The notes beneath the pieces were generated by a model, which had not been told where the DNA came from, searched no databases, and was given only the letters and a program-made list of their open reading frames with translations. This document shows, in pieces, positions 265 through 17,801 of a stretch of DNA of 64,000 nucleotides. This stretch comes from an uncultured Chloroflexia bacterium. GTDB lineage: Bacteria; Chloroflexota; Anaerolineae; JAAYZQ01. The position numbers and the translations under genes are program-made. Position 1 is the stretch's first letter. Every line of letters starts with the position of its first letter. The stretch lies in the NCBI GenBank assembly GCA_963700285.1, contig CAVOXA010000001.1, positions 1,600,001 through 1,664,000 of the forward strand, read 5' to 3'.

Positions 265-1081
265 TTAGCTGTGACCCTCCATCATGGCCACAAAGTCACC
301 GTGCCAACTGTGGTACCAGACGTCGCCGCTGCTGCCGTGGACGCTCAACATGCCCTCGATCTGGCCATCGTTTAGGAAGTGAAGCGTGTAGTAGCCGTAG
401 AACTCGTCGGCGTCACCCGCCGTCCGACCGGGCAGGTTGGCGTCCAGCCAGCGCTGGGCCACGTCCTCGGCCTCCTGGGGTGACAAGGTCATCTCGCCGG
501 ACGCATAGCCGCCCATCATACCCATCATCCCGCGCCCCGGCCCATCATCCCGTACTTGGCGTTCCACATCATGTTCGGACCAGGCTCCGGGCCGACGGCA
601 CCGCTGTCCTTGTCTACCAGCAGCTCCATGGCGCCGATGCCGGTGTCCTGCTCGGCGACGATGGCATAGTAGTTGCGCTCGAACTCCATGACCTCGGTCA
701 CTTCCAGGCCGGTGTAGCCCAGGCGTTCAACGTAGTCGTGGACAGCTGTCTCGACGTCCTCCAGCGAGGAAACGTCCCCCTCACCGGGGATCACGTACCC
801 CTGGCCGCAGGGCATGTCCTGCGCGGAGCCGAAGGGCATGTCGTTCCAATTCCAGTTGCCGCCCATCATGCCAGGTCCCATCATGCCATAGCCTGGCTGA
901 CCCGTCAATGCACGGCACCTCTTGGACAGAGCTGCCCGTCATGCCGTAGCCCGATCATCCCATTCCCCATCACGTTGTAGCCCCAGCGGCTCTGGCTCCA
1001 GATGGATCCGGCCAAGAAACCGGCAACCACCAGCACCACGGCCAACGCTATCGTTCCTATCACAATCGCAAAGGTCTTCAT
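265..1081 (-). CDS. Secreted/membrane-anchored Met/Gly-rich protein with two PepSY-like domains (frameshifted)
   Basis: Hydrophobic N-terminus MKTFAIVIGTIALAVVLVV from 1081; ORFs 525-908 and 265-567 continue it, with GMMG motifs and repeated EFxxxY segments. Confidence 0.6.
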
Positions 1082-1122
1082 CGTCTTTCTCTTCCTCTCG
1101 TTCTCAGTCTTTTGGTCGCCCT

Positions 1123-1353
1123 CTATTGGGAGAGCGTTTCTCTCATCAAGTCGTATTCTTCCCGGCTGATCTCACCCCGGGCAAAACGCCTATCGAGGAT
1201 GTCGCGGGCGTTCAGGTCCCGTCCGGTCGGCGGGGCTGGCGGCTGACCGGCTGGCGGAAACAGTGCCCGGATCAGCCAGGCAGCCAGCGCGATCAGCGCC
1301 CCCCAGAAGAGAACCATGAACAGCAGGCCGAGTCCCATTCCCCAACCCATCAT
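1123..1353 (-). CDS. SHOCT-domain membrane protein
   Basis: One TM helix plus C-terminal ARDILDRRFARGEISREEY. Confidence 0.85.
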   Translation of the reverse strand: MMGWGMGLGLLFMVLFWGALIALAAWLIRALFPPAGQPPAPPTGRDLNARDILDRRFARGEISREEYDLMRETLSQ

Positions 1354-1366
1354 GCCGCACCTCCGT

Positions 1367-1729
1367 CTAGCTCGACAACAGCTCTTTCATGCGCTCGAAC
1401 TCTTCGCGGTCAATCTCGCCGCTGGCGTAGCGCCGCTTGAGGATGTCCAGAGGCGATTCGCCCCTGTCGACCCGCTGCGTACCCTGCCGGGCCAGACCGG
1501 CGACCAACAAGGCGATACCGCCGATGATCACACCCCAGAACAGAAACATGAGTATCCCTCCACCGAATGTGTGCATCCCCCAGGGGGAGCCGTAGTTGCC
1601 TGTCATCCCAAAGCCGGCTTGACAACAGCCTCCGGCCCACAACTGGCTGCCCAGTAGCCAGCCCCCGCCCAGCAGGACTGCCAGAGCCAGCGCGATGCCA
1701 ATGCCGATTACAATGGTCCGTGTCTTCAT
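1367..1729 (-). CDS. SHOCT-domain membrane protein
   Basis: Two hydrophobic segments plus PLDILKRRYASGEIDREEF. Confidence 0.85.
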   Translation of the reverse strand: MKTRTIVIGIGIALALAVLLGGGWLLGSQLWAGGCCQAGFGMTGNYGSPWGMHTFGGGILMFLFWGVIIGGIALLVAGLARQGTQRVDRGESPLDILKRRYASGEIDREEFERMKELLSS

Positions 1730-1797
1730 TCATGACCTCCGGTTCCATGACCTCCGAAGGGTCTTGTCCCTCGGAGGTCATACTCGTACACATTCTC

Positions 1798-2077
1798 TCA
1801 GGCCAGGTCCTGCAACATGCGCTGGTACTCTTCGCGGGTCAGCTCACCGCGAGCATACCGGGTCTGCAGAATCTCGCGGGCCGACGCCTGCCGGGTCCCT
1901 TGAGGTTGCGTCCAGGAAGCCAACTCCTTCTGAAGCTCCGAACCTGCGCCACAGCCAGATGCCCAGGAACACCAGACCCACCAACAACCCAATAGTCAGG
2001 AGTGTGCTGAGCAAGCCACCGAACAAGCCCAGGCCGCCCATACCACCTCCAAAACCACCCATCATTCCTCCACCCAT
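1798..2077 (-). CDS. SHOCT-domain membrane protein (frameshifted)
   Basis: MGGGMMGGFGGG-TM in one frame and AREILQTRYARGELTREEY in another. Confidence 0.75.
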
Positions 2078-2150
2078 CACGACATCCTCATTTCGTTCTT
2101 CTCCAGGGGCAGGTTGTTGACTGCCCTCTTGATGTCTCACTGTTGGGGAT

Positions 2151-2205
2151 AGTATAACAAGGCGGGTTAAAGGAACCATGAACAGAGTTTAAAGATTTGG
2201 TAAAG
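2151..2205 (-). promoter_or_regulatory. Extended -10 promoter with four phased OmpR-type boxes
   Basis: Minus-strand TGnTATACT at 2151-2159; plus-strand TTAAAG/ATGAAC/TTAAAG/GTAAAG at 2167, 2178, 2189 and 2200 (11-bp period). Confidence 0.6.
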
Positions 2206-2261
2206 AAAAAGAGCGACGTCTCGCGTTGAGACATCGCTCCAGGCGCCCAGTGGGGGGTTGT

Positions 2262-3431
2262 TCAGGCAACAGGCCCTTCGGCCCGGTCCTTCCAGGACGC
2301 GCTCAGGGCAGGGAGGGTGAATGAGAAGGTGCTCCCCTGACCTGGTCCGTCGCTGGCAGCCTGGATCTGCCCGCCGTGAGCCTCGACCAGGTGACGGGCG
2401 ATGGTCAGGCCGATGCCACTGCCGCCCCCGGCTCGCGAGCGCGACTTGTCCACCCGGTAAAAGCGCTCGAATATGTGAAGCAGATGCTCTGGGGGGATGC
2501 CAACACCCGTATCCTCCACCGATAACCGCACCCGGTCGCCTTCGCGCCGGGCGGACAAGCAGACCTGGCCGCCCGATGGCGTGTATTGCAGCGCATTGCC
2601 CACCAGGTTGAGCAGCACCTGGCCGATGCGGTCCTCGTCGACGCGGACGGGGGGCAGATCCGCGGGCACGTCGATCTCCAGCGCCACGCCCTTTTCCTCG
2701 AACTGGTGGCCCAGGCGGGCCACGACGCCGTCGACGAGACGTTCTGGCGCAGTGGGGAGCAGGTTCAATTCGTAAGCCCCCGCCTCGACCCGGCTGAGTT
2801 CCTGCAAGTCGTGGACCAGCCGTTGCAGCCGATCGGCCTCGCGGTACACCTGCTGAAAAGTGGCCGCTTCGGCCGGCAGCACGCCATCGATCAGGCCCTC
2901 CATGTAGCCCTTGATCGATGCTAACGGGGTACGCAGCTCGTGAGCCACGTTGCCGATCAGTTCCAGGCGGAGGGCTTCGGTCTGCTCCAGCCGGGACGCC
3001 ATCTGGTTGAAGCTGAGGGCCAGCCGGCCCAGCTCGTCCAGATCCTCCCGGCTTGCCTTGCCGGGCACACCTACCCGCTCCTCGTAGTGGCCATCGGCGA
3101 TGCGCTGGCTGGCGGTCTGCATCTCTTGTACCGGCAGCACCACCCGCCGGCTGACAAACACGCTAAGGACCAGAGCCGCAACAAAGGCAGCCGACCCGGC
3201 GAGGAGGAGGGCCTCGGTAACCGCGTTGCGAAAGCTGCTGAAGAAATCCAGCTCCAGCATCATGGACATGCCGCCCATCATCTCGGCCATGGCGGCCATG
3301 TGCCGCTCAAAGGCGGTCGGCACCGCCAACTCCGCGGCCGTGGCCAAGACTACGATGCCCACCAGCAATGACCACCAGGTAGGACAGGAACAGCTTCAGG
3401 CTCAGGTGCCGGCGCACATGAGCTGTGGCAT
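2262..3431 (-). CDS. HAMP-domain sensor histidine kinase (BaeS-like); 5' end frameshifted
   Basis: H-box VAHELRTPL, N-box NLVGNALQYT, DTGVGIP, FERFYRVD, GSGIGL. Confidence 0.93.
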
Positions 3432-3433
3432 CT

Positions 3434-4121
3434 TCACGCCTCCTCGTCTTCGAACCGATAGCCTACCCCCCGCACGGTGACGATGAAGCGATCGTCGCCC
3501 AGCTTCTGCCGGATGTGACCGATGTGCACGTCCACCACCCGCTCTTCGCCGTAAAAGTCGTAGCCCCACACCTGTTGCAGCAGTTGTTCACGGCTGAGTA
3601 CCAGCCCTCGATGCTCGGCCAGGGTTTTGAGCAGATCGAACTCGGTGCTGGTCAGCTCTACGGGCTCGTCGTCGACCCACACCTGGCGGCTACCCGTGTC
3701 GATGCGTACATGGCGAAAGGCCAGCGTCGCTGCCTCGGCTGGGCCGACGCCGTCGCGCAGGCGGCGCAGGGCGGCCTTGACGCGGGCCACCAGCTCGCGC
3801 GGGCTAAAGGGTTTGGTCAGATAGTCGTCGGCCCCCACTGACAGGCCGACGATCTTGTCGGTCTCCTCCGACTTGGCCGTGAGCATGATGACATAGACGT
3901 CCGACTCGCGACGCAGTTGGGTCAGCAGTTCGATGCCGTCCATGCCGGGCAGCATGACATCCAGGACGATCAGATCTGGCTTAAAGGCACGCGCCGCTTT
4001 GAGGCCGCCCGGCCCGTCCATGGCGGTGTAGCACCTCATACCCCTCGCGACGCAGGTAGGCCGTCACCAGGTCGAGGATGCTCTGTTCATCGTCAACCAC
4101 CAGAATCTTGACACTAGGCAC
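3434..4121 (-). CDS. OmpR/PhoB-family response regulator (frameshift near 4040)
   Basis: KILVVDDE N-terminus, LDVMLPGMDG, KPFSPREL, TVRGVGYRF. Confidence 0.93.
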
Positions 4122-4540: not shown

Positions 4541-4571
4541 AAAGAGAAAGGCCGGGTAAGAAACCCCGGCC
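4541..4571 (-). terminator. Intrinsic terminator after the aldolase-Fae genes
   Basis: GGCCGGG/CCCGGCC stem followed by TTTCTCTTT on the minus strand. Confidence 0.65.
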
Positions 4572-4594
4572 TAACATTCCATCGATCCAGATAC

Positions 4595-6071
4595 CTACGG
4601 CGCGTAGCGGAACGGGTGCCGGGCAGCTTCCTTCTCGGCAACCAGCTCCTGCAGCGTCGGCCGTTCCTCCAGGGCCTTGCGGATGGCGCCGCGCATGGCT
4701 TTATAGTTGTTGATCTTGACCCGCTGGCGGATGCTCGCCGCGGGATGGACAAAGACGTTGGCGATAAGGCAGATATCGTCCAGGATCGCTTCCGGCAGGT
4801 TGTGATATTCGACGGCGTGTGCCAGCGCCAGGTTGATGCCGCTGGCCGCCTCTTCGTAGACCAGTTGTTTCGCCTTTGCGCCGCGCACGGTGACAGTAGG
4901 CACCAGCATTGTCAGCGGCCGCTCGTTGATGATCACCAGTTCATGCCCGGGGCGCGCTTCGTTTCTGGCCCGCTCCAGGGCTCTGCCCACCGGCCCCTCT
5001 TTCCTGCCCAGCAGCAGATCGATGTGGGCCACCTCGGAGAAGGGCGGCCCGGCAAAGCCTTCGCCCACGCAGAGCGTCAGGTCGCCCGAGGGAGCGGGTA
5101 GGTCGGCTGGCAGGGCGTACTCGACCTCCTTGCCTCCCAGGACCACCGCCTGGGTCGGGATCTTGCCCAGGATCTCGAGTTGGCTGCGCAGGTCCTCGTA
5201 ATCTTCCCTCTCAAACTCGCCACCCTGGATCAGGGGCGAGCGGACGTTGCTCATGCCCGGCAGGCCCATCATGCGTAGCCCTTCTTTGACCGCCTGGGGC
5301 GCCCCCTTGCGTACCAGCAGCCGGGTGAGGATCTGCAGATTCCTTCTGTCGTCGCTGCACGAACTCGGCGTCGCCCCGCTGCGCAGCCTGGTAGATCTCC
5401 TGCCAGACGTCGGGTACGAGGTTGGCCGAGGCCAGGATGGCCCCGTCGGCGCCGGCCAGCAAGGCCGCGCCGACGACCTCGTCGTGGCCAACAAAGAGGC
5501 TGATGGTACCCTTGAGTTTTTCCAGGGCGGCCATAAAGAAGGGAATGTCTCCCGAAGAGTCCTTCATGCCGACGACGTTGTCAAAGGCCAGGCCCATGCC
5601 CTCGGCCGTCCACCACCGATAGTGGGTGCCGGCGGTCTGGGGGATGTTATAGAGCACGATGGGCAGGCCGATCTTGTCCACCTGCTGGTAGTGGTCGAAG
5701 ACCTCATTGAAGGCTGGTTTGAGAAAGTAGGGGGAAACCACCAGAGCCCCGGTCACCCCGGCTTCCTTGGCCCACTGGGTCAGTGCCAGTGTCTCCAGGG
5801 TGCTCTGGCAGCCGGTGCCGGCCAGTACGGGTACCTGCCCGGCGACCTCGTCGATGCAGATCTCGATGGCCCGCTGTTTCTCCTCCAGCGTCATCGAGCT
5901 GAATTCGCCTGTCGTACCGCAGGGTACCACGCCGTTGACGTGGGGCAGTACGAAGCGGATCAGCTCGCGGTAGGTGTCCTCGTCCACCTGGTCGTCAGCC
6001 GTAAACGGAGTGACCAGGGCGGGGTAGATTCCCTTGAACCATTCAGGTTTCTTGCTCTTCTCTGGTGTCAT
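4595..6071 (-). CDS. DHDPS/NAL-family class I aldolase fused to a C-terminal formaldehyde-activating enzyme (Fae)-like domain, copy A (frameshift near 5340)
   Basis: GTTGEF, LYNIP, GMKDSSG; then VGEGFAG..EVAHIDLLLG..NVFVHP..NYKA..HPF, resembling Fae. Confidence 0.85.
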
Positions 6072-6072
6072 G

Positions 6073-7505
6073 TTATTTCACCTCCGCGAAGGCATCGTCG
6101 ATGGCGACGCAGGTCGCTCTGTAGGCATTGTGGTGCAGCACGCGTCGGTCCAGGGCCTGGGGATGCACGGTGGCCTGGACGAACATCACGTCAGCATGCA
6201 TCGCCCCTTCCGGGATGACTCCCTCGGCCAGCTTGTCGACGATAGCCTTGGCCACAGCGTTCTGTACCGGGCCGTAGATCATGTTTGCCTGTCGCAGATC
6301 CTTCAGTTCGTTGGTGGGCACGATCAGCGTGCTGGGTCGCACCGTCAGGTTGGGCTCCAGGATGGTAGTCAGAGCTTCAAGGCCGTGGCGCGGGTAGGTG
6401 AGCTGGTAGGCCCAGGCCTCGCCCAGCGGGCCGTCTTTGGCGCCAGCCAGCAAGTCAATCTGGGTCGATTCGGCGCCCTCGCCGGCGCTGCCGGTGCCGG
6501 TCCGCATTCCAGCCGTACAGATCGTATCCGCCCTCAGCCCCACAGCCCTCGAACCGGCCATCCAGCGGCCCTTTCGGGAGGTAGTGCTCGGCGGGCGGCG
6601 GCTGGATCTTGCCCAGTTTCTCCAACTCGAGCTGGATCTCGGCCCGGTCCTCGTGGAGCAGAGACCCGCCAACGCTCTTCAGGGGACTGCGCGGCCGTCC
6701 AGCGTCTACGCCCATCATCTTGAGCGCCTGTTTGACCGGAACCCCGCCGCCATAGCGGCAAAAAATGCGGGAGAGCTTTTGGACCTGACGCTGGAGGGTC
6801 CGGGCGGTGCCGAGATCTCCCGACTGGACAGCCCTCAGGACCGCTTGCCAGACCTCGGGATATACCTGGGCCGAGGCCAGAATCACGCCCGCGGCGCCGC
6901 CGGCCAGCCCGTTCAACACGACCTCATCGTGGCCGATGAGGACGTTGATGCGATCGCCGGCGTATTCCAAGATCTCCATGGTGTAGGTCAGGTTGCCTGA
7001 CGAATCCTTCAACCCGACGATGTTGGGAATGTCTGCCAGGTCTTCGACCACGCGGCGGGGCAGGTAGGCGTCCACGACCTGGGGAATGTTGTAGAGGATG
7101 ATGGGCATCTGCGGCAAGGCTCTGGTGATCTCATAGTAGTGCTGGTAGATGACCCTTGTCGGACGGATGGAGGAAATAGGGCGTCACGATCAGACAGGCG
7201 TCTGCCCCAGCTTCCTCCGCGCCGAGTGCCAGGTTGATGGCCTGCCGGGTGCCCGGCGCGCCAGTACCGGCAATGACCGGTTTGCCCTGGGCTTCCTCAA
7301 CGGCAATTTGCACCAGGCGCTTGTTCTCCTCGGGTGTGAGGTAGTTGAACTCGCCGGTGGTGCCGCAGGGGACCAGGCCGTCCACGTCGTCGATCACGTG
7401 GCGAATGAGGTTGCGGAAGGCAGCCTCGTCCACCGACTGATCCTTGGCAAAGGGTGTGACCAGGGCGGGGTTCACGCCGCCCGGTCGGAACGGTTTTTCG
7501 ATCAT
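6073..7505 (-). CDS. DHDPS/NAL-family aldolase fused to a Fae-like domain, copy B (frameshifts near 7150 and 6550)
   Basis: GTTGEF, LYNIP, GLKDSSG; then GEGAESTQIDL..ILEPNLTVRPSTLIVP..QANMIYGPVQNAVAKAIVD..EGVIP. Confidence 0.8.
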
Positions 7506-7550
7506 GATTCACTCTCCATTGAGAATGTTGTTGATATTGACAGTTCGTCA

Positions 7551-7617
7551 ACCGCAGAGACACAGAGAATGCAGAGGTTTCTTCTATGGGTTTCTCTGCC
7601 CTCTGAGTCTCTGCGGT
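7551..7617. repeat. Intergenic palindromic element
   Basis: ACCGCAGAGACACAGAG ... CTCTGAGTCTCTGCGGT inverted arms. Confidence 0.65.
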
Positions 7618-7625
7618 AAATCGTA

Positions 7626-8897
7626 CTACTTGTGCAGGTTCTGGGCGGCGATGAAGGACAGACCCTTCTCGGTCAGCGCCCGAGCGGTACGATTCACGGC
7701 GTCGTGCTTGTCCAGGTAGTTTCGCTCGCAGGGCGTCCCAGTCGCCCGATTCCAGGATCTTCAGCTTTGTCGCGGAAGTAGTCCAGGATGTCGGATGGGT
7801 GGTCGCGGGTCTGGTCCAACTCTGGGGCGCCGCCCTCGTGCTTGGCCGAGATATTGGGCACGCGGGCGGCCAGCTCGACCAGTTCATCGGTGCGGTCGTA
7901 GGGCTGTCGGACGATGTGCTTATAGGTCTCGGTGATGTGGTGCTCAAAGCGGACGATATCCTCCAGATTCGAGCGCTTTCCGTACCTGGGCAGTGAGTTC
8001 GATGGTCTCGTTGTTGACCGAGTTGCTCCAGTTGAAGCCGATCAGAGAGGTCGTTCCATCGTCACGCCCAAAGAGCTTTGCGCCGATGAGGGTCCACAAC
8101 GCTGCGTAGGGATTGTCATTGCCCATAAAGACCGAGATCTTGAACTCGATATCCACTCCCAGCTTGTGGAGGAAATAGCCCAGGAGCACGGTGCCGGGAT
8201 TGATGTTGAGTACCTGTTTGATGCCATAGTTGGTATAGTAGTACAGGAACTCGTCGAGCCACTTGAGCGCGTGGTCGTTGGGCTGGCCGACTCCCCCAAA
8301 GTAGCCTGTGATCGTCTCTGGCCCGCCCAGGTGAATGTTGGAGCCATCGGTACCCTTGGTATCCAGGGTTTCGACATAACTTGCGCCCACGATCTGCATG
8401 GCAGCAGCCACGGCCAGAATATCGCCCTGGTCTGCCTCCTGTTCCTTCATCTTGCGGACGCGGATAAAGCGACCTGGCATCAGTTCGCCGTTGGCAATGG
8501 CCTGACTGGCCTCGGTGATGAGAAAGGGAAAGTACTGCAGGGCGCTGATCTCGAGGGTGACGGCAAAGTCATCCGCGAAATCCATGGTGCTGGCCCTGGC
8601 GCCCAGGACTTTGTGGCGATAGTCGGCCACGGAGATAAAAGCGCCAGCGTCGCGCTGTTCCATCAGCCATTCCAGGTCAGCCAGATAGGGAGAGCCTGTC
8701 CGTTCCAGGCGGCCGAGCAAGCGGGGCAACTGGCGCGCCTCGTCGGCCTTTTGATTGATCTCATCCACGCTGCCATACCTGGCCACGACGGCCAGAAAAT
8801 CGCTGATGACCTGGGTATTGGGATCCAGCAGCAGGGAGTTGATCTCTTCGAGGCTGTTCGAAGAGATTCTCAGTCGGTTGCGGAGATCACTTTCCAT
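7626..8897 (-). CDS. Hypothetical cytoplasmic protein, about 420 aa (frameshifts near 7960 and 7720-7760)
   Basis: ORF 7944-8897 continues in other frames as DIVRFEHHITET..KHEGG..HPSDILDYF..KHDAVNRTA..NLHK-stop. Confidence 0.75.
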
Positions 8898-9035
8898 AAG
8901 TCCCTCCTCCTATGTCTTTTGGCAAGGGTTCGCCGTCAAGGACCCGGATGGGTCAAGGCGTCCATTATAGCATGGAACGTGGTGACTGTCATCTTTTGCG
9001 ATGTGGGCTGAAGCCAACAATGTGGAGGCAAAGCA

Positions 9036-9071: not shown

Positions 9072-9148
9072 TGGTACCCTCGGCGCGATTCGAACGCGCG
9101 GCCTTCTCCTCCGCAGGGAGACGCTCTAATCCGCTGAGCTACGAGGGC
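9072..9148 (-). tRNA. tRNA-Arg(GCG)
   Basis: GCCCTCGTAGCTCAG..TCTCC-CTGCGGA-GGAGA..GTTCGAATC..GAGGGTACCA cloverleaf. Confidence 0.93.
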
Positions 9149-9153
9149 ATGTA

Positions 9154-9245
9154 GGCGGGGAGGCAGGGATTCGAACCCTGGGAGGAGCTATTAACCCCTC
9201 AACCACTTAGCAGGCGGCCCCAATCGTCCACTCCGGCACCTCCCC
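9154..9245 (-). tRNA. tRNA-Ser(GCT)
   Basis: Anticodon arm GCCGC-CTGCTAA-GTGGT, long variable arm, GGTTCGAATCC; full CCA not encoded. Confidence 0.92.
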
Positions 9246-9321
9246 CCTGTTTCTTTTCCGGCCTTGGCCTCTGGACCTTCGACCTTCACTCAGGATGAAC
9301 CATCGAAAACCCAGAGTTGAT

Positions 9322-9411
<90 letters not shown>

Positions 9412-9577: not shown

Positions 9578-10846
<1,269 letters not shown>

Positions 10847-14317: not shown

Positions 14318-14431
14318 CCCGCCCAGGCCAGGCCTGCGTAGGTTCAGCCCAAGCGAGAGCCACGGCCATCGTTCGTGTTGTACGAACAAACTACCTCTCC
14401 TTTGTTCGGGGGAGGCTTGGGAGGAAGAATC

Positions 14432-15058
14432 ATGGACCGAGTTGATCAGATGTACGAGGCGATCAAGCAAAAGATCCTCGACCTGGAAGTGGATCCGACC
14501 CAGCCCATCGACGAAACGGTACTGGTGCGGGAGACCGGCGGCAGCCTGACCCTGGTGCGCCAGGCGCTGGATCGCCTGGAACAGGAGGGCTTGGTCGTCA
14601 AACAGCGAAGGCGCTGGCACGTAGCCCGGGCGGCCACTGCCTCCATCATGATGGAGATCTTTGAGGTGCGCACCACGCTGGAAGGCATGTGCGCCCGCCT
14701 GGCTGCCGAGCGGATCACGGCGGAGCAGATCGAGCGCATGGAGAAGATCCATCGTGACTTTGAGCGTGTTCTTCATCAAGGGGACAACGAGGCGCTCCTG
14801 GCGGTCGATCAAAAGTTCCACCAACTGCTCTACGAGGCGTCGGGCAATCGATTCCTGGCACGGGCGTTGGATGAGATGTACACGCTGATCTACCGCCTCT
14901 TCTTCTTTGCTCTGGATCGTATGGGCAGCGTGCGTGCCAACGTGGAGGAGCACCACGACATTCTGGAGGCAGTCAAGGCCGGGGACGGGCGTACCGCCGA
15001 GCGGCTGATCCAGCAGCACATCATCCACTTCCAGCGAATGGTGGAAGAGCTGCTGTAG
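14432..15058 (+). CDS. GntR-family regulator with FCD domain
   Basis: wHTH VRQALDRLEQEGLV; EVRTTLE, DQKFHQLLYEASGN, EEHHDILEA. Confidence 0.9.
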   Translation: MDRVDQMYEAIKQKILDLEVDPTQPIDETVLVRETGGSLTLVRQALDRLEQEGLVVKQRRRWHVARAATASIMMEIFEVRTTLEGMCARLAAERITAEQIERMEKIHRDFERVLHQGDNEALLAVDQKFHQLLYEASGNRFLARALDEMYTLIYRLFFFALDRMGSVRANVEEHHDILEAVKAGDGRTAERLIQQHIIHFQRMVEELL

Positions 15059-15181
15059 CCGGCGAGGCATAGCCGGACCTCACCTCGGTGGCACAGAGAC
15101 GCCGAGAAACAGTAGGTTTTGTCTGGAGATCCTCTGTGTTCTTTGTCTCTGTGGTTCTGTGATTGCCTGCTCAGTGTGCTG

Positions 15182-15880
15182 CTAGTTGCGCAGTAGGCTG
15201 AGGATCAGGACCGCGGCCGCCGGGATGGTCAGGTTGTCGATGCCCCAGGGCGACAGCGCTTCGACCAGGGTGCACACCAGGGCCACCGCCGCGCCATAGA
15301 TGAGGGCCAGCAGCCAGTTGATGGGCGGCTTGCCCGCGAGATAGGGCATGACGAACAGCGCCAGGGAGGTGGTGATCCAGCTCCAGAAGAGCATGGCCAC
15401 CGAGCCCTCCAGCGAGCGGGTCCGCCCGGCGATGGTGTAGCGGTAGTGCCCGTAGCGCTGGCCAATGATGGCCGCCATGGCATCGCCCCAGGTCAGCGGC
15501 ATCATGCTGGCAACCATCAGCACCGGCTGGCTCCAGAAGAAGTAGATCAGGGCGCCGAAAGGCGATGGGAAAGTAGATGGTGCCCAGGTTGCCCCTGTCC
15601 TCCGCTCTCCATGGCCTTGAAGGTGCCCCGCAGGTAGGAGATGGCGTTGATCGACGACAAAGGTCGCCGGTGGGATGAGGGCCAGGTACCAGGTCTCAAA
15701 GAGCAGCACGGTGCCCACGACCCACATGCCAACGCCGATGTGGATGAACTTGCGGGTGAAATCGGGCGGGCGGTTGCCGAGCGCGGCGCAGGAACTCCCC
15801 CAGGGCGATGACGCCAAATACATAGACATAGGAAAGGACCAGGGCGGTGTAGTCGGGCTTCCATGTAATGGCAAGGTCAT
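15182..15880 (-). CDS. Phytol/dolichol kinase-like (CTP-dependent) membrane protein (frameshifted)
   Basis: TRKFIHIGVG, WGDAMAAIIG, RSLEGS, IDNLTIP. Confidence 0.8.
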   Translation of the reverse strand: MTLPLHGSPTTPPWSFPMSMYLASSPWGSSCAALGNRPPDFTRKFIHIGVGMWVVGTVLLFETWYLALIPPATFVVDQRHLLPAGHLQGHGERRTGATWAPSTFPSPFGALIYFFWSQPVLMVASMMPLTWGDAMAAIIGQRYGHYRYTIAGRTRSLEGSVAMLFWSWITTSLALFVMPYLAGKPPINWLLALIYGAAVALVCTLVEALSPWGIDNLTIPAAAVLILSLLRN

Positions 15881-15910
15881 CGGGCGGATCTCCCTTCGGC
15901 TGTATGCGGA

Positions 15911-16826
15911 TCAGGGGATTGGCTGTTCAAGGCGACGGCGATCTGGGCAGCCACGGCGGCGTTGTTTTCCAGCAGGGCGACGTTGGCTTTGAGGCTGGCC
16001 CCACCGGTCTTGCTGGGCGATCCAGCTGAGCAGGAAGGGGGTGATGCGCTGCCCTCGATGCCCCGCGCCTGGGCCTCGGCCAGGGCGGCGGCGATGGCGG
16101 CTTCCAGCTGCTCGGCCGGCATCTCGTCGCCGGCCGGCACGGGCACGGCGATCAGCAGTCCCGCCGGACAGTCCCATCTGGCGGCTGGCCCGGATGATGG
16201 CGGCTGCCTCCTCGGGAGTGTCCACCCGTACGTCCACCGGCAGGCCGCTGCTGCCGGGTGTAAAAGGCCGGAAACTCGTCGGTGCCATAGCCGATGACGG
16301 GCACGCCGGCGGTCTCCAGCCATTCCAGGGTGGCTCGCAGGTCGAGGATCGATTTGGCGCCGGCGCAGACGACGGCCACGGGCACCGAGGCCAGGGTGGG
16401 CAGGTCGTTGGAGACGTCAAAGGGCGGGTCGCGGTGCACGCCGCCGATGCCGCCCGTGGCAAAGACCTCGATGCCGGCCCAGGCGGCGATGGTGACCGTC
16501 GCCGCGACCGTGGTGGCGCCGTCCTCGCCTCGGGCGACGACGACCGGCAGGTCGCGGCGGCTCACCTTGCGGATGCCCTCGGCGCGGTGGCCAGATGCTC
16601 CAGCTCGTCGTCGCTCAGGCCGACGCGCAGCTGCCCGTCGAGCACGGCGATGGTGGCCGGCACGGCGCCATGCTCGCGGACGATGGCCTCCATCTGCCGC
16701 GCGGTCTCCAGGTTGGTGGGGTAGGGCAGCCCGTGGGCAATGACGGTGGATTCCAGGGCGACGACGCGGCCGGCTGCCCTCCAGCGCTTGTTGTACTTCA
16801 TGGCTCAGCCGTAGTGGTTGTCTCAC
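15911..16826 (-). CDS. psuG: Pseudouridine-5'-phosphate glycosidase (multiple frameshifts)
   Basis: [51 protein letters not shown]. Confidence 0.9.
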
Positions 16827-16867
16827 TTCGATAGCCCTGCTACGCCTGTGATGTCCCGCATGGGCGT

Positions 16868-17801
16868 CTAGATGACCAACTGGTCGTAGAGCCGCTCCAG
16901 GCTCAGGTCCGGGCAGACGGTTTCGCGGCTCTGCAGGGTGAGGGCCGCCGCCGAGGCGCCCAGCCGCACCGCCTCGTCCACGGGAAAGTCGTTGAGCAGG
17001 CCAAAGACGACGGCGGCCGTCAGGGCGTCGCCGGCGCCGGTGAGGTCCACGACCTCGCACCTCGATGGCCGGCACGTGGCCGCTTTCCTGCGAGGTGGCA
17101 TAGACCAGGCCGGTGGCGCCCAGGGTCACGATGGCGATCTTGACGCCCAGGCCACCAGCTTTTGCGCGGCGACCAGGGCGCTTTCCCGGTCGGTGACCTG
17201 CACGCCGCACAGGGCCTTCGGCTTCGGCGGCGTTGGGCGCCACCAGGGTGAGGTCCGGCAGGTAGGGGCACAGGCGCGGGGCCAGGGTGGCGGTGGTCGG
17301 GTCGGCGCAGACCGGCACACCGTACCGGCGCGCCAGGCTAAAGATGGTGCTGCAGCGTCTGCGGCTGACAGGTTGGCGTCCAGGACGATCATCCGCGCGT
17401 CGCGAAAGAGGGCGCGGCGCCGGTAGATAAAGTCCGGCGTGATCAGCTCGCGGTTGATGCTCATGTCGTCGATGGACATGACCAGGTCGCCCGTGTCGTC
17501 CAGGACGGCCAGGTAGGCAGCGGTGCGGTGGTCGGCGTCCACCAGGACGTGGCTGATGTCGATGCCGCACTCGGCGGCCTGCTGCAGGATGCGCCGCCCG
17601 GAGCCGTCGTCGCCCACGGCGGAGAGCAGGACGACCCGCTCGCCCAGGCGGGCCAGGTTCTCGGCGATGTTGCGGCCCACGCCGCCGACGCTGACGCGGA
17701 TGGCGCCCGGCGTGGAGGTGCCGGTCTGGATTGGCTTTGCCGGCGCGACCTTTGGTGTCGATGCTGGCCGCGCCGATGACTAGGATATGGCCTGTGCTCA
17801 T
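16868..17801 (-). CDS. psuK: PfkB-family kinase, probable pseudouridine kinase (multiple frameshifts)
   Basis: [20 protein letters not shown]; adjacent to psuG. Confidence 0.8.

Follow-up and report, generated by a model that had tools for sequence, protein, structure and literature searches.

A tandem pair of aldolase-Fae fusion genes from Anaerolineae with a Fae site apparently divided between two putative subunits

Two adjacent aldolase-Fae genes

The window analysed here, a stretch of 64,000 nucleotides from an uncultured Chloroflexia bacterium (contig CAVOXA010000001.1, positions 1,600,001 to 1,664,000), carries on its minus strand two genes, B (7505-6073) and A (6071-4595), separated by a single base. 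Each codes for a DHDPS-type class I aldolase barrel followed by a domain of the formaldehyde-activating enzyme Fae. An earlier note, made from the sequence alone, had described them as two DHDPS-family::Fae fusion genes 1 bp apart, and this organization was confirmed. The Pfam search assigned PF00701 (DHDPS) to A (E 6e-57) and, in two pieces, to B (E 6e-33 and 7e-31), at 107-193 bits per piece against a gathering cut-off of 22.1, and PF08714 (Fae) to A and B (E 4e-31 and 1e-35; 109 and 124 bits against a cut-off of 27). The two Fae parts also match the Methylorubrum extorquens Fae 1y5y (E 8e-13 and 3e-19), and the Fae model TIGR03126 is borderline for the fusion proteins, with three of five above its cut-off. 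The motifs GTTGE, YNIPQ and KDSSG are all present in both window copies, and residues 243-492 of A, which comprise the C-terminal helices of the barrel and the Fae domain, lie in one frame, in both respects as the note had it.

Compared with a same-genus genome (G001; the genome of the window is G000), gene A contains one extra base near 5341, gene B extra single bases near 7150 and within 6543-6584, and the upstream gene U1 extra bases at 7728, 7758 and 7970. The extra bases at 5341, 7150/7152, 7728, 7758 and 7970 are missing from the contigs of close relatives, in a comparison whose rows lie outside the 6543-6584 region of B. Since the contigs of close relatives lack these bases and the orthologues are intact (487-492 aa for A, 471-498 aa for B), the frame breaks in the window copies are most likely assembly errors. 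A reading as pseudogenes was rejected on the comparisons with G001 and with the close relatives.

Complementary halves of the Fae site

Three types of fusion were distinguished, namely single-copy proteins (S, 15 sequences), A (35) and B (32). In a quick tree built from 40 of the 82 sequences, from which three rows and near-duplicates were excluded, a single branch sets each type apart from the others, with a support of 83 for A, 91 for B and 94 for S. The Fae site was compared in an alignment of 15 S, 33 A and 32 B sequences against 43 canonical Fae, after removal of two rows with frameshifts or Ns. The Fae site sits between subunits and employs the His, and we take the Asp, Leu, Lys, Thr and Gln to have their roles there as well. 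The His is retained in 93% of S, 100% of A and 3% of B, the Gln in 100%, 3% and 100%, the Leu and Pro in 100%, 0% and 100%, and the C-terminal His-Pro in 100%, 100% and 0%, respectively. The His motif and a C-terminal His-Pro tail remain in the Fae of gene A, which has lost the Leu, Pro-Asn and Gln; that of gene B has lost the His and the C-terminal tail and retains the Leu, Pro-Asn and Gly-Pro-x-Gln. Single-copy archaeal forms carry both residue sets. S conserves 87 columns; type A alone retains 27 of these and type B alone 22, while 23 persist in both types and 15 have been lost from both. The complete site (His, Asp, Leu, Lys, Thr, Gln) is found in no single polypeptide of A or B, and the two combined complete it except for the Lys. 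Judged from this alignment, the two Fae domains have decayed in a complementary fashion and are not equivalent, a point that the note had missed.

A complex model of the Fae domains, calculated with the orthologues from G015, scored 0.85, against 0.00 for the best of three controls, with a contact agreement between runs of at least 83% and a partner pLDDT of at least 88; the mark applied is reached by 116 of 157 solved pairs and by 2 of 215 mismatched pairs. The modelled interface involves His347, Asp349 and residues 481-485 of A with Leu378, residues 381-389, Gly411 and Gln414 of B, and places the His face of A on the Gln face of B. The pass may stem from the similarity of the domains to the Fae oligomer of known structure; the informative aspect of the prediction is that the conserved face was chosen out of two possible ones. 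Collectively, the complementary Fae halves and the complex model suggest that A and B are likely two subunits of one enzyme and not, as first read, parallel enzymes.

Table 1. Features of the operon, in positions of the window
Feature	Position	Strand	Basis or remark
Gene A: DHDPS-type class I aldolase + Fae domain	4595..6071	-	Pfam, motifs, alignment
Gene B: DHDPS-type class I aldolase + Fae domain	6073..7505	-	Pfam, motifs, alignment
Fae domain of A	4610..5068	-	PF08714 positions 1-158
Fae domain of B	6070..6495	-	PF08714 positions 3-144
Codon for the His equivalent to Fae His22, gene A	5024-5026	-	alignment
U1: orphan, highly conserved 422-aa TIM-barrel enzyme, first operon gene	7626..8897	-	three extra bases break the frame
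Sigma-70-type promoter-like site	8964..8992	-	11/12 consensus, extended -10; 67 bases upstream of U1
Intrinsic-terminator-like hairpin	4549..4572	-	8 pairs, 7 G-C; just after the gene A stop

Distribution of the fusion

A survey of the architecture across Chloroflexota and archaeal genomes, as the note had advised, found the fusion in both. The family search returned 1171 protein clusters at E <= 0.001, plain Fae included; the best 120 of these hits are mostly DHDPS+Fae proteins of 487-492 aa, and those among them named at NCBI come from Anaerolineae or Chloroflexota. A profile search over 50% clusters gave about a dozen full-length fusion clusters, some of them named Lokiarchaeota or Thorarchaeota. 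Among the genome-scan matches listed, the fusion hosts are Anaerolineae, Chloroflexia, a spirochaete, Bathyarchaeia, Promethearchaeota, Thorarchaeota, Borrarchaeum, Sifarchaeum and Methanofastidiosia. Fae is present in 26 of 41 related genomes. The loci of 25 relatives all contain barrel and Fae sequence (25/25), with B immediately before A in 17; elsewhere, contigs end or the genes lie apart.

The aldolase barrel

The Schiff-base Lys, the catalytic Tyr and the Thr-Thr carboxylate site are invariant in all 30 A and all 29 B rows, and the best solved-structure matches of the barrel are DHDPS (E about 1e-44). When the fusions are aligned to solved DHDPS, none of the 79 parsed (80 examined) has an Arg at the position of Arg138, which in DapA presumably serves the aspartate-semialdehyde carboxylate, and in 28 of the 30 B proteins parsed, a Phe stands at the position of Tyr107. 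Furthermore, dapB was found in none of the 41 genomes by a search that detected it in 11 of 14 controls. The loss of the Arg138 equivalent, read by the note from the YNIPQ motif of the two copies, is thus general in the fusions, and by this loss and the missing dapB the fusion enzymes are not DapA, again as the note had proposed.

Most source names of the fusion proteins nevertheless read 4-hydroxy-tetrahydrodipicolinate synthase. The cut-off of the dapA model TIGR00674 (206.15) is exceeded by three of three B-type proteins (211.8, 221.5 and 243.5) and reached by neither of two A-type proteins, which explains the database labels. G000 has 14 DHDPS-family matches, none of them above this cut-off. 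The fusion proteins score below the cut-offs of the nanA, KdgD, HpaI-NOT-DapA and archaeal KDG aldolase models, and neither PF02548 nor TIGR00222, which represent PanB, hits them. A near-invariant His-Asp-Glu follows the barrel Gly.

The pterin carrier

The note had named tetrahydromethanopterin (H4MPT) as the pterin partner of known Fae; as the carrier of the one-carbon (C1) unit in this organism, H4MPT was not supported. Neither mch nor mptG was found in G000; among the 26 fusion-bearing relatives, mch occurs in 4, mptG above cut-off in none and fhs in 22, and both genomes with mptG are without the fusion. On the other hand, all five archaeal fusion hosts have mch. Co-occurrence with H4MPT genes, which the note had singled out for a check, fits the archaeal hosts by mch and was rejected for the bacterial ones. 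Because of this distribution of mch, mptG and fhs, tetrahydrofolate (H4F) is the probable carrier in these Anaerolineae and H4MPT the likely one in the archaeal hosts.

U1 and U2, third gene of the operon

The unit had been described as two genes, but U1 shares the operon as a third, and a promoter-like site and a terminator-like hairpin bracket U1-B-A (Table 1). Between 4200 and 9600, promoter-like sites number 2 against a shuffle mean of 1.1, by consensus match only. For the terminator-like sites (5 against a shuffle mean of 3.8), the argument is the position and not the count. An imperfect inverted repeat was seen by eye at about 7550-7618, between U1 and gene B.

U1 had no Pfam or NCBIfam hit and Atlas scores of at most 0.83; Foldseek gave no match of its model (pLDDT 72.8) at E <= 0.001, and the fold search returned generic TIM barrels. 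In other lineages, the position of U1 is held by U2, a 316-aa protein without a Pfam hit, whose model (pLDDT 86) resembles class II fructose-bisphosphate (FBP) aldolases and a U32 protein at a TM of about 0.45. The U32 protein Mk0906 matched it with E 6e-7, ranked below the class II FBP aldolases, and among the Atlas neighbours of U2, PF01136 (U32) occurs in 17-23% of members. U1 has no invariant cysteine and U2 has one. Homology of U1 and U2 is weakly supported by hhalign (probability 40.7, E 3e-4, 225 columns, shallow profiles). Their strand-end motifs may resemble those of synthases using phosphoenolpyruvate (DAHP synthase, NeuB). Relatives of U1 form at least 8000 clusters, those of U2 2031.

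Among the 41 genomes, 24 have U1 and 9 a close U2, never together in one genome, and one or the other is present in 25 of the 26 fusion-bearing relatives versus 8 of the 15 others. For the archaea, 61 genomes from the phylum to which an Asgard host belongs were sampled, and U2 was sought in part of them. Fusion-type Fae frames were called in 24 of them, the DHDPS part being checked in five and the others called by frame length and score; 12 of the 24 carry U1, and every one of the remaining 12 carries U2. Archaeal U2 lies within about 3 kb of the fusion in 10 of 12 cases, and it was found in none of three fusion-negative archaeal controls.

PanB paralogues in place of the fusion

In 80 metagenomic U1 loci, sampled with a query from a PanB-adjacent locus, a PanB-like gene accompanies U1 in 34 (as immediate neighbour in 31), the fusion in 5 and neither in 41, many of the latter being short contigs; no locus has both. 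A similar alternation is seen in 33 U-bearing relatives: 25 carry the fusion and 5 a U-type PanB, the remaining 3 are without either gene, and the two never occur together in this set. The U-linked PanBs form two clades separate from the PanB of coenzyme A (CoA) synthesis in a quick tree. The position of E. coli Val179, which we take to line the pocket, is Leu in 35/35 of them and that of Val214 is Ile in 34/34, whereas Val/Val is kept in 11/11 panC-linked or archaeal CoA-type PanBs; three unlinked rows inside the U clades are also Leu/Ile. According to PMC7610986, residues 202, 212 and 214 of E. coli PanB set the nucleophile size, and shrinking them widens the substrate range. The larger residues of U-linked PanB (V179L, V214I) therefore imply a donor smaller than 2-oxoisovalerate.

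Two side observations concern these loci. In G011 (L147:7691-9562), U1 is directly followed by a NUDIX gene and the fusion pair is missing from the otherwise syntenic locus; the sole PanB-like match in this genome is weak. In G013 and G009 (L191, L192), PanB-family proteins on a long branch have Thr and His for the conserved Asp84 and Lys112.

Surroundings of U and of the operon

U also adjoins FGGY kinases, UxaA-like and TtdAB-like hydro-lyases and sugar transporters. Several lineages encode TtdA/TtdB-like subunits of an Fe-S hydro-lyase a short distance downstream of U1/U2, often surrounded by genes of Wood-Ljungdahl type (L151, L158, L204, L206, L211, L212, L241); a tetronate dehydratase would yield 4-hydroxy-2-oxobutanoate (HOB), but an ordinary fumarase is equally likely. 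Near U1, the loci L223, L225, L229, L233, L234, L236, L237 and L282 (9 of 80 loci with the shorter form of L280) encode a 620-aa protein that resembles Glu/Leu/Phe/Val dehydrogenases, has CBS domains and scores under every NCBIfam cut-off; it is a candidate deaminating enzyme upstream of the 2-oxo acid. On the Polaromonas plasmid CP087967.1, a U1 relative (59%; L144:9986-11257) stands beside a sigma-54 activator, and a divergent operon carries hydroxy-acid oxidoreductases, a TRAP transporter and a DapA-like gene with the Arg motif kept. The neighbours of U1 in the 41 loci without fusion or PanB showed no common theme in a scan of 34 proteins (28 out of 53 candidate neighbours, of which one was scanned twice, and 5 from PanB-type loci).

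In the window, a two-component system (HAMP-HisKA kinase and OmpR-type regulator) with small Met/Gly/His-rich membrane proteins (265-4039, minus strand) separates gene A from a NUDIX gene, which lies directly after A in 10 of 21 loci and in G000 at C1:1597421-1597813. Since this gene is confined to close relatives and is not adjacent in G000, it was treated as a bystander and not as an operon partner. Upstream of the operon, on the minus strand (9072-9411 and 9578-10846), are tRNA-Arg with anticodon GCG, which is unusual in bacteria, two tRNA-Ser genes and a frame-broken seryl-tRNA synthetase-like gene. Farther on (14375-17801) lie a GntR/FCD regulator, an unassigned membrane protein and frame-broken PfkB and Indigoidine_A pieces, which look like a pseudouridine kinase/glycosidase pair.

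Proposed reaction

In both U1-positive, fusion-negative archaea (2/2), U1 occurs with a class I/II aminotransferase, homoserine dehydrogenase and AOR; in the operon of G090, one or two other genes stand between the aminotransferase and the homoserine dehydrogenase. HOB is the keto acid of homoserine, and its formation from pyruvate and formaldehyde is called non-native in bioRxiv 10.1101/2025.02.17.638773, where P. putida PanB partly supported the step. HOB would be the simplest metabolite usable by the aldolase-Fae, by the narrowed PanB and by an aminotransferase with homoserine dehydrogenase. Since the narrowed-pocket PanB and the aminotransferase-homoserine dehydrogenase-AOR contexts both point there, the suggestion of the earlier note that the substrate is a pyruvate-formaldehyde aldol such as HOB is backed as likely by two genomic lines.

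We propose, with confidence and doubt about evenly balanced, that A and B form a two-subunit HOB hydroxymethyltransferase, which would convert HOB and H4F to pyruvate and methylene-tetrahydrofolate. The barrel would bind HOB as a Lys Schiff base and cleave it by a retro-aldol reaction to pyruvate and formaldehyde; the latter would be channelled to the Fae site predicted between the His face of A and the Gln face of B, and there condensed with the pterin, H4F in Anaerolineae and H4MPT in archaeal hosts as gene content suggests. U1 (or U2) would likely make HOB from a C4 precursor. Such a reaction is expected to be near equilibrium, as for SHMT or PanB. We lean slightly towards the degradative direction, with the C1 unit entering the folate/Wood-Ljungdahl branch, because the hosts keep homoserine dehydrogenase (35 of 41 genomes, 22 of 26 fusion hosts) and have no biosynthetic gap. 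A replacement of normal homoserine synthesis was rejected on the same counts.

In its widest form, which we hold more tentatively, the proposal would be of a natural carrier-coupled HOB hydroxymethyltransferase, a third route between a hydroxymethyl carbon skeleton and a pterin besides SHMT and PanB, in which Fae has been split and has passed from methanopterin to folate. Together with the orphan TIM barrel, it may form a node between pyruvate plus C1 and the homoserine skeleton in Asgard archaea, Bathyarchaeia and Anaerolineae.

Several points weigh against the hydroxymethyltransferase, besides the way in which the U1 loci were sampled and the archaeal fusions called. The Lys invariant in canonical Fae is replaced in 80/80 fusions, mostly by Thr, and we know of no Fae that uses H4F. 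The pocket argument rests on the PanB analogue and not on the fusion, and the narrower pocket would also fit 2-oxobutyrate or hydroxypyruvate. A larger substrate could be indicated by the His-Asp-Glu that follows the barrel Gly, as we take this motif to resemble the polyol-binding one of neuraminate lyase. Family and fold searches give no identity for the U1 reaction. The association with U has exceptions, since three U1 genomes (G005, G011, G018) have neither fusion nor U-type PanB and G008 (71% complete) has the fusion and a U-type PanB without U. Finally, the related genomes behind the co-occurrence counts are not independent samples.

Alternative readings

The alternative that survives best, though rather unlikely, keeps the two-subunit transferase and gives it another C1-bearing 2-oxo acid, such as 2-oxobutyrate + C1, 2-oxo-tetronate (hydroxypyruvate + C1) or a bis-hydroxymethyl acid from branched-sugar breakdown. 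Indeed, the narrowed PanB pocket does not single out pyruvate, U adjoins the sugar-related kinases, hydro-lyases and transporters named above, and the acidic His-Asp-Glu motif is kept in the barrel. However, the residues that narrow the pocket are hydrophobic and offer a hydroxyl no polar partner, and the operon of aminotransferase, homoserine dehydrogenase and AOR points towards the carbon skeleton of homoserine.

A role of the fusion as substitute for PanB in CoA biosynthesis, forming ketopantoate from 2-oxoisovalerate and C1, seems improbable. Ketopantoaldolase is an orphan activity (EC 4.1.2.12), the fusion and PanB-like genes alternate beside U, and 17 of 26 fusion hosts are without PanB. 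Yet most of these PanB-less hosts are also without panC, and the other 9 encode a PanB-family protein, among them G000 with its canonical panB next to panC; in addition, canonical PanB occurs together with phosphopantothenate synthetase in three of five archaeal hosts, and the alternating PanBs are the separate clades in which the gem-dimethyl pocket is filled. The role of a simple PanB substitute was downgraded on these grounds.

Equally little probability attaches to a barrel that releases or uses free formaldehyde while the bacterial Fae domains serve as a pterin-independent scaffold, formaldehyde trap or regulatory module. This would agree with the missing H4MPT genes of most bacterial hosts, with the loss of the canonical Lys from all fusions and with a mismatch of symmetry, Fae being a five-fold ring and DHDPS a tetramer. 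Against it, bacteria and archaea alike preserve one full set of His, Asp, Leu and Gln, spanning the predicted A-B interface, and the PanB analogue is a folate-dependent transferase. As for DapA in lysine synthesis, the scores of B-type proteins, the database names and the want in G000 of another match above the TIGR00674 cut-off leave it next to no chance in the face of the lost Arg138 equivalent, the Phe for Tyr107 in B, the low scores of A and the missing dapB, and it was rejected.

Significance and comparison with known systems

The DapA labels on most named fusions distort metabolic reconstructions of Asgard archaea, Bathyarchaeia and Anaerolineae, as they imply lysine synthesis in genomes without dapB. 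If the hydroxymethyltransferase is real, it would add a natural C1-C3 junction to these sediment anaerobes and would represent the first Fae working with folate and a clear example of duplicated genes that share one active site between them. It would also give a handle on two large unnamed enzyme families, U1 and U2. For synthetic formaldehyde or methanol assimilation, an HOB enzyme coupled to methylene-tetrahydrofolate would fill the limiting step.

Among the titles listed in the literature searched, which did not extend to subscription journals and supplements, none concerned an aldolase-Fae fusion, and the term 'fae' has no occurrence in PMC5020050. Within the literature found, HOB-pyruvate-C1 chemistry is described only in engineered pathways.

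The nearest known architecture is the Fae-Hps of archaea (NF009833), which likewise fuses Fae to an aldolase making or releasing formaldehyde and follows the same coupling logic. Here, however, the partner is an N-terminal Schiff-base DHDPS barrel and not hexulose-6-phosphate synthase, and the fusion reaches 81-115 bits against the NF009833 model, through its Fae part only, with a cut-off of 274. Many Asgard genomes carry both Fae-Hps and the aldolase-Fae fusion, and to our knowledge Fae-Hps has no split A/B form. With Fae of M. extorquens (1y5y/1y60; PF08714, TIGR03126), the fusion shares the domain family and, across A and B, the His, Asp, Leu and Gln; it differs in that no window copy has the whole site, the Lys is lost and most bacterial hosts are without H4MPT genes.

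The likeness to PanB (PF02548, TIGR00222) would lie in the net reaction, from 2-oxo acid and methylene-pterin to 4-hydroxy-2-oxo acid, and PanB paralogues occupy the place of the fusion beside U. The two are unrelated in sequence, and Schiff-base chemistry in the fusion contrasts with the metal-enolate chemistry of PanB; the substrate of the fusion is probably smaller than 2-oxoisovalerate, and it coexists with canonical panB/panC or panB and phosphopantothenate synthetase. DapA, NanA, YagE/YjhH, KDG aldolase and HBPA have the Thr-Thr, Tyr and Lys catalytic set in common with the fusion, which is distinguished by the missing Arg138, by scores below the nanA, KdgD, HpaI-NOT-DapA and archaeal KDG cut-offs and by the attached Fae. 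Among these, HBPA joins pyruvate to formaldehyde in vitro, according to PMC10127515. Lastly, the engineered homoserine cycle (HOB aldolase and HOB transaminase), as described in bioRxiv 10.1101/2025.02.17.638773, involves the same metabolite and C-C bond but relies on promiscuous enzymes and free formaldehyde, whereas A and B would be its natural counterpart, a dedicated enzyme coupled to a carrier.

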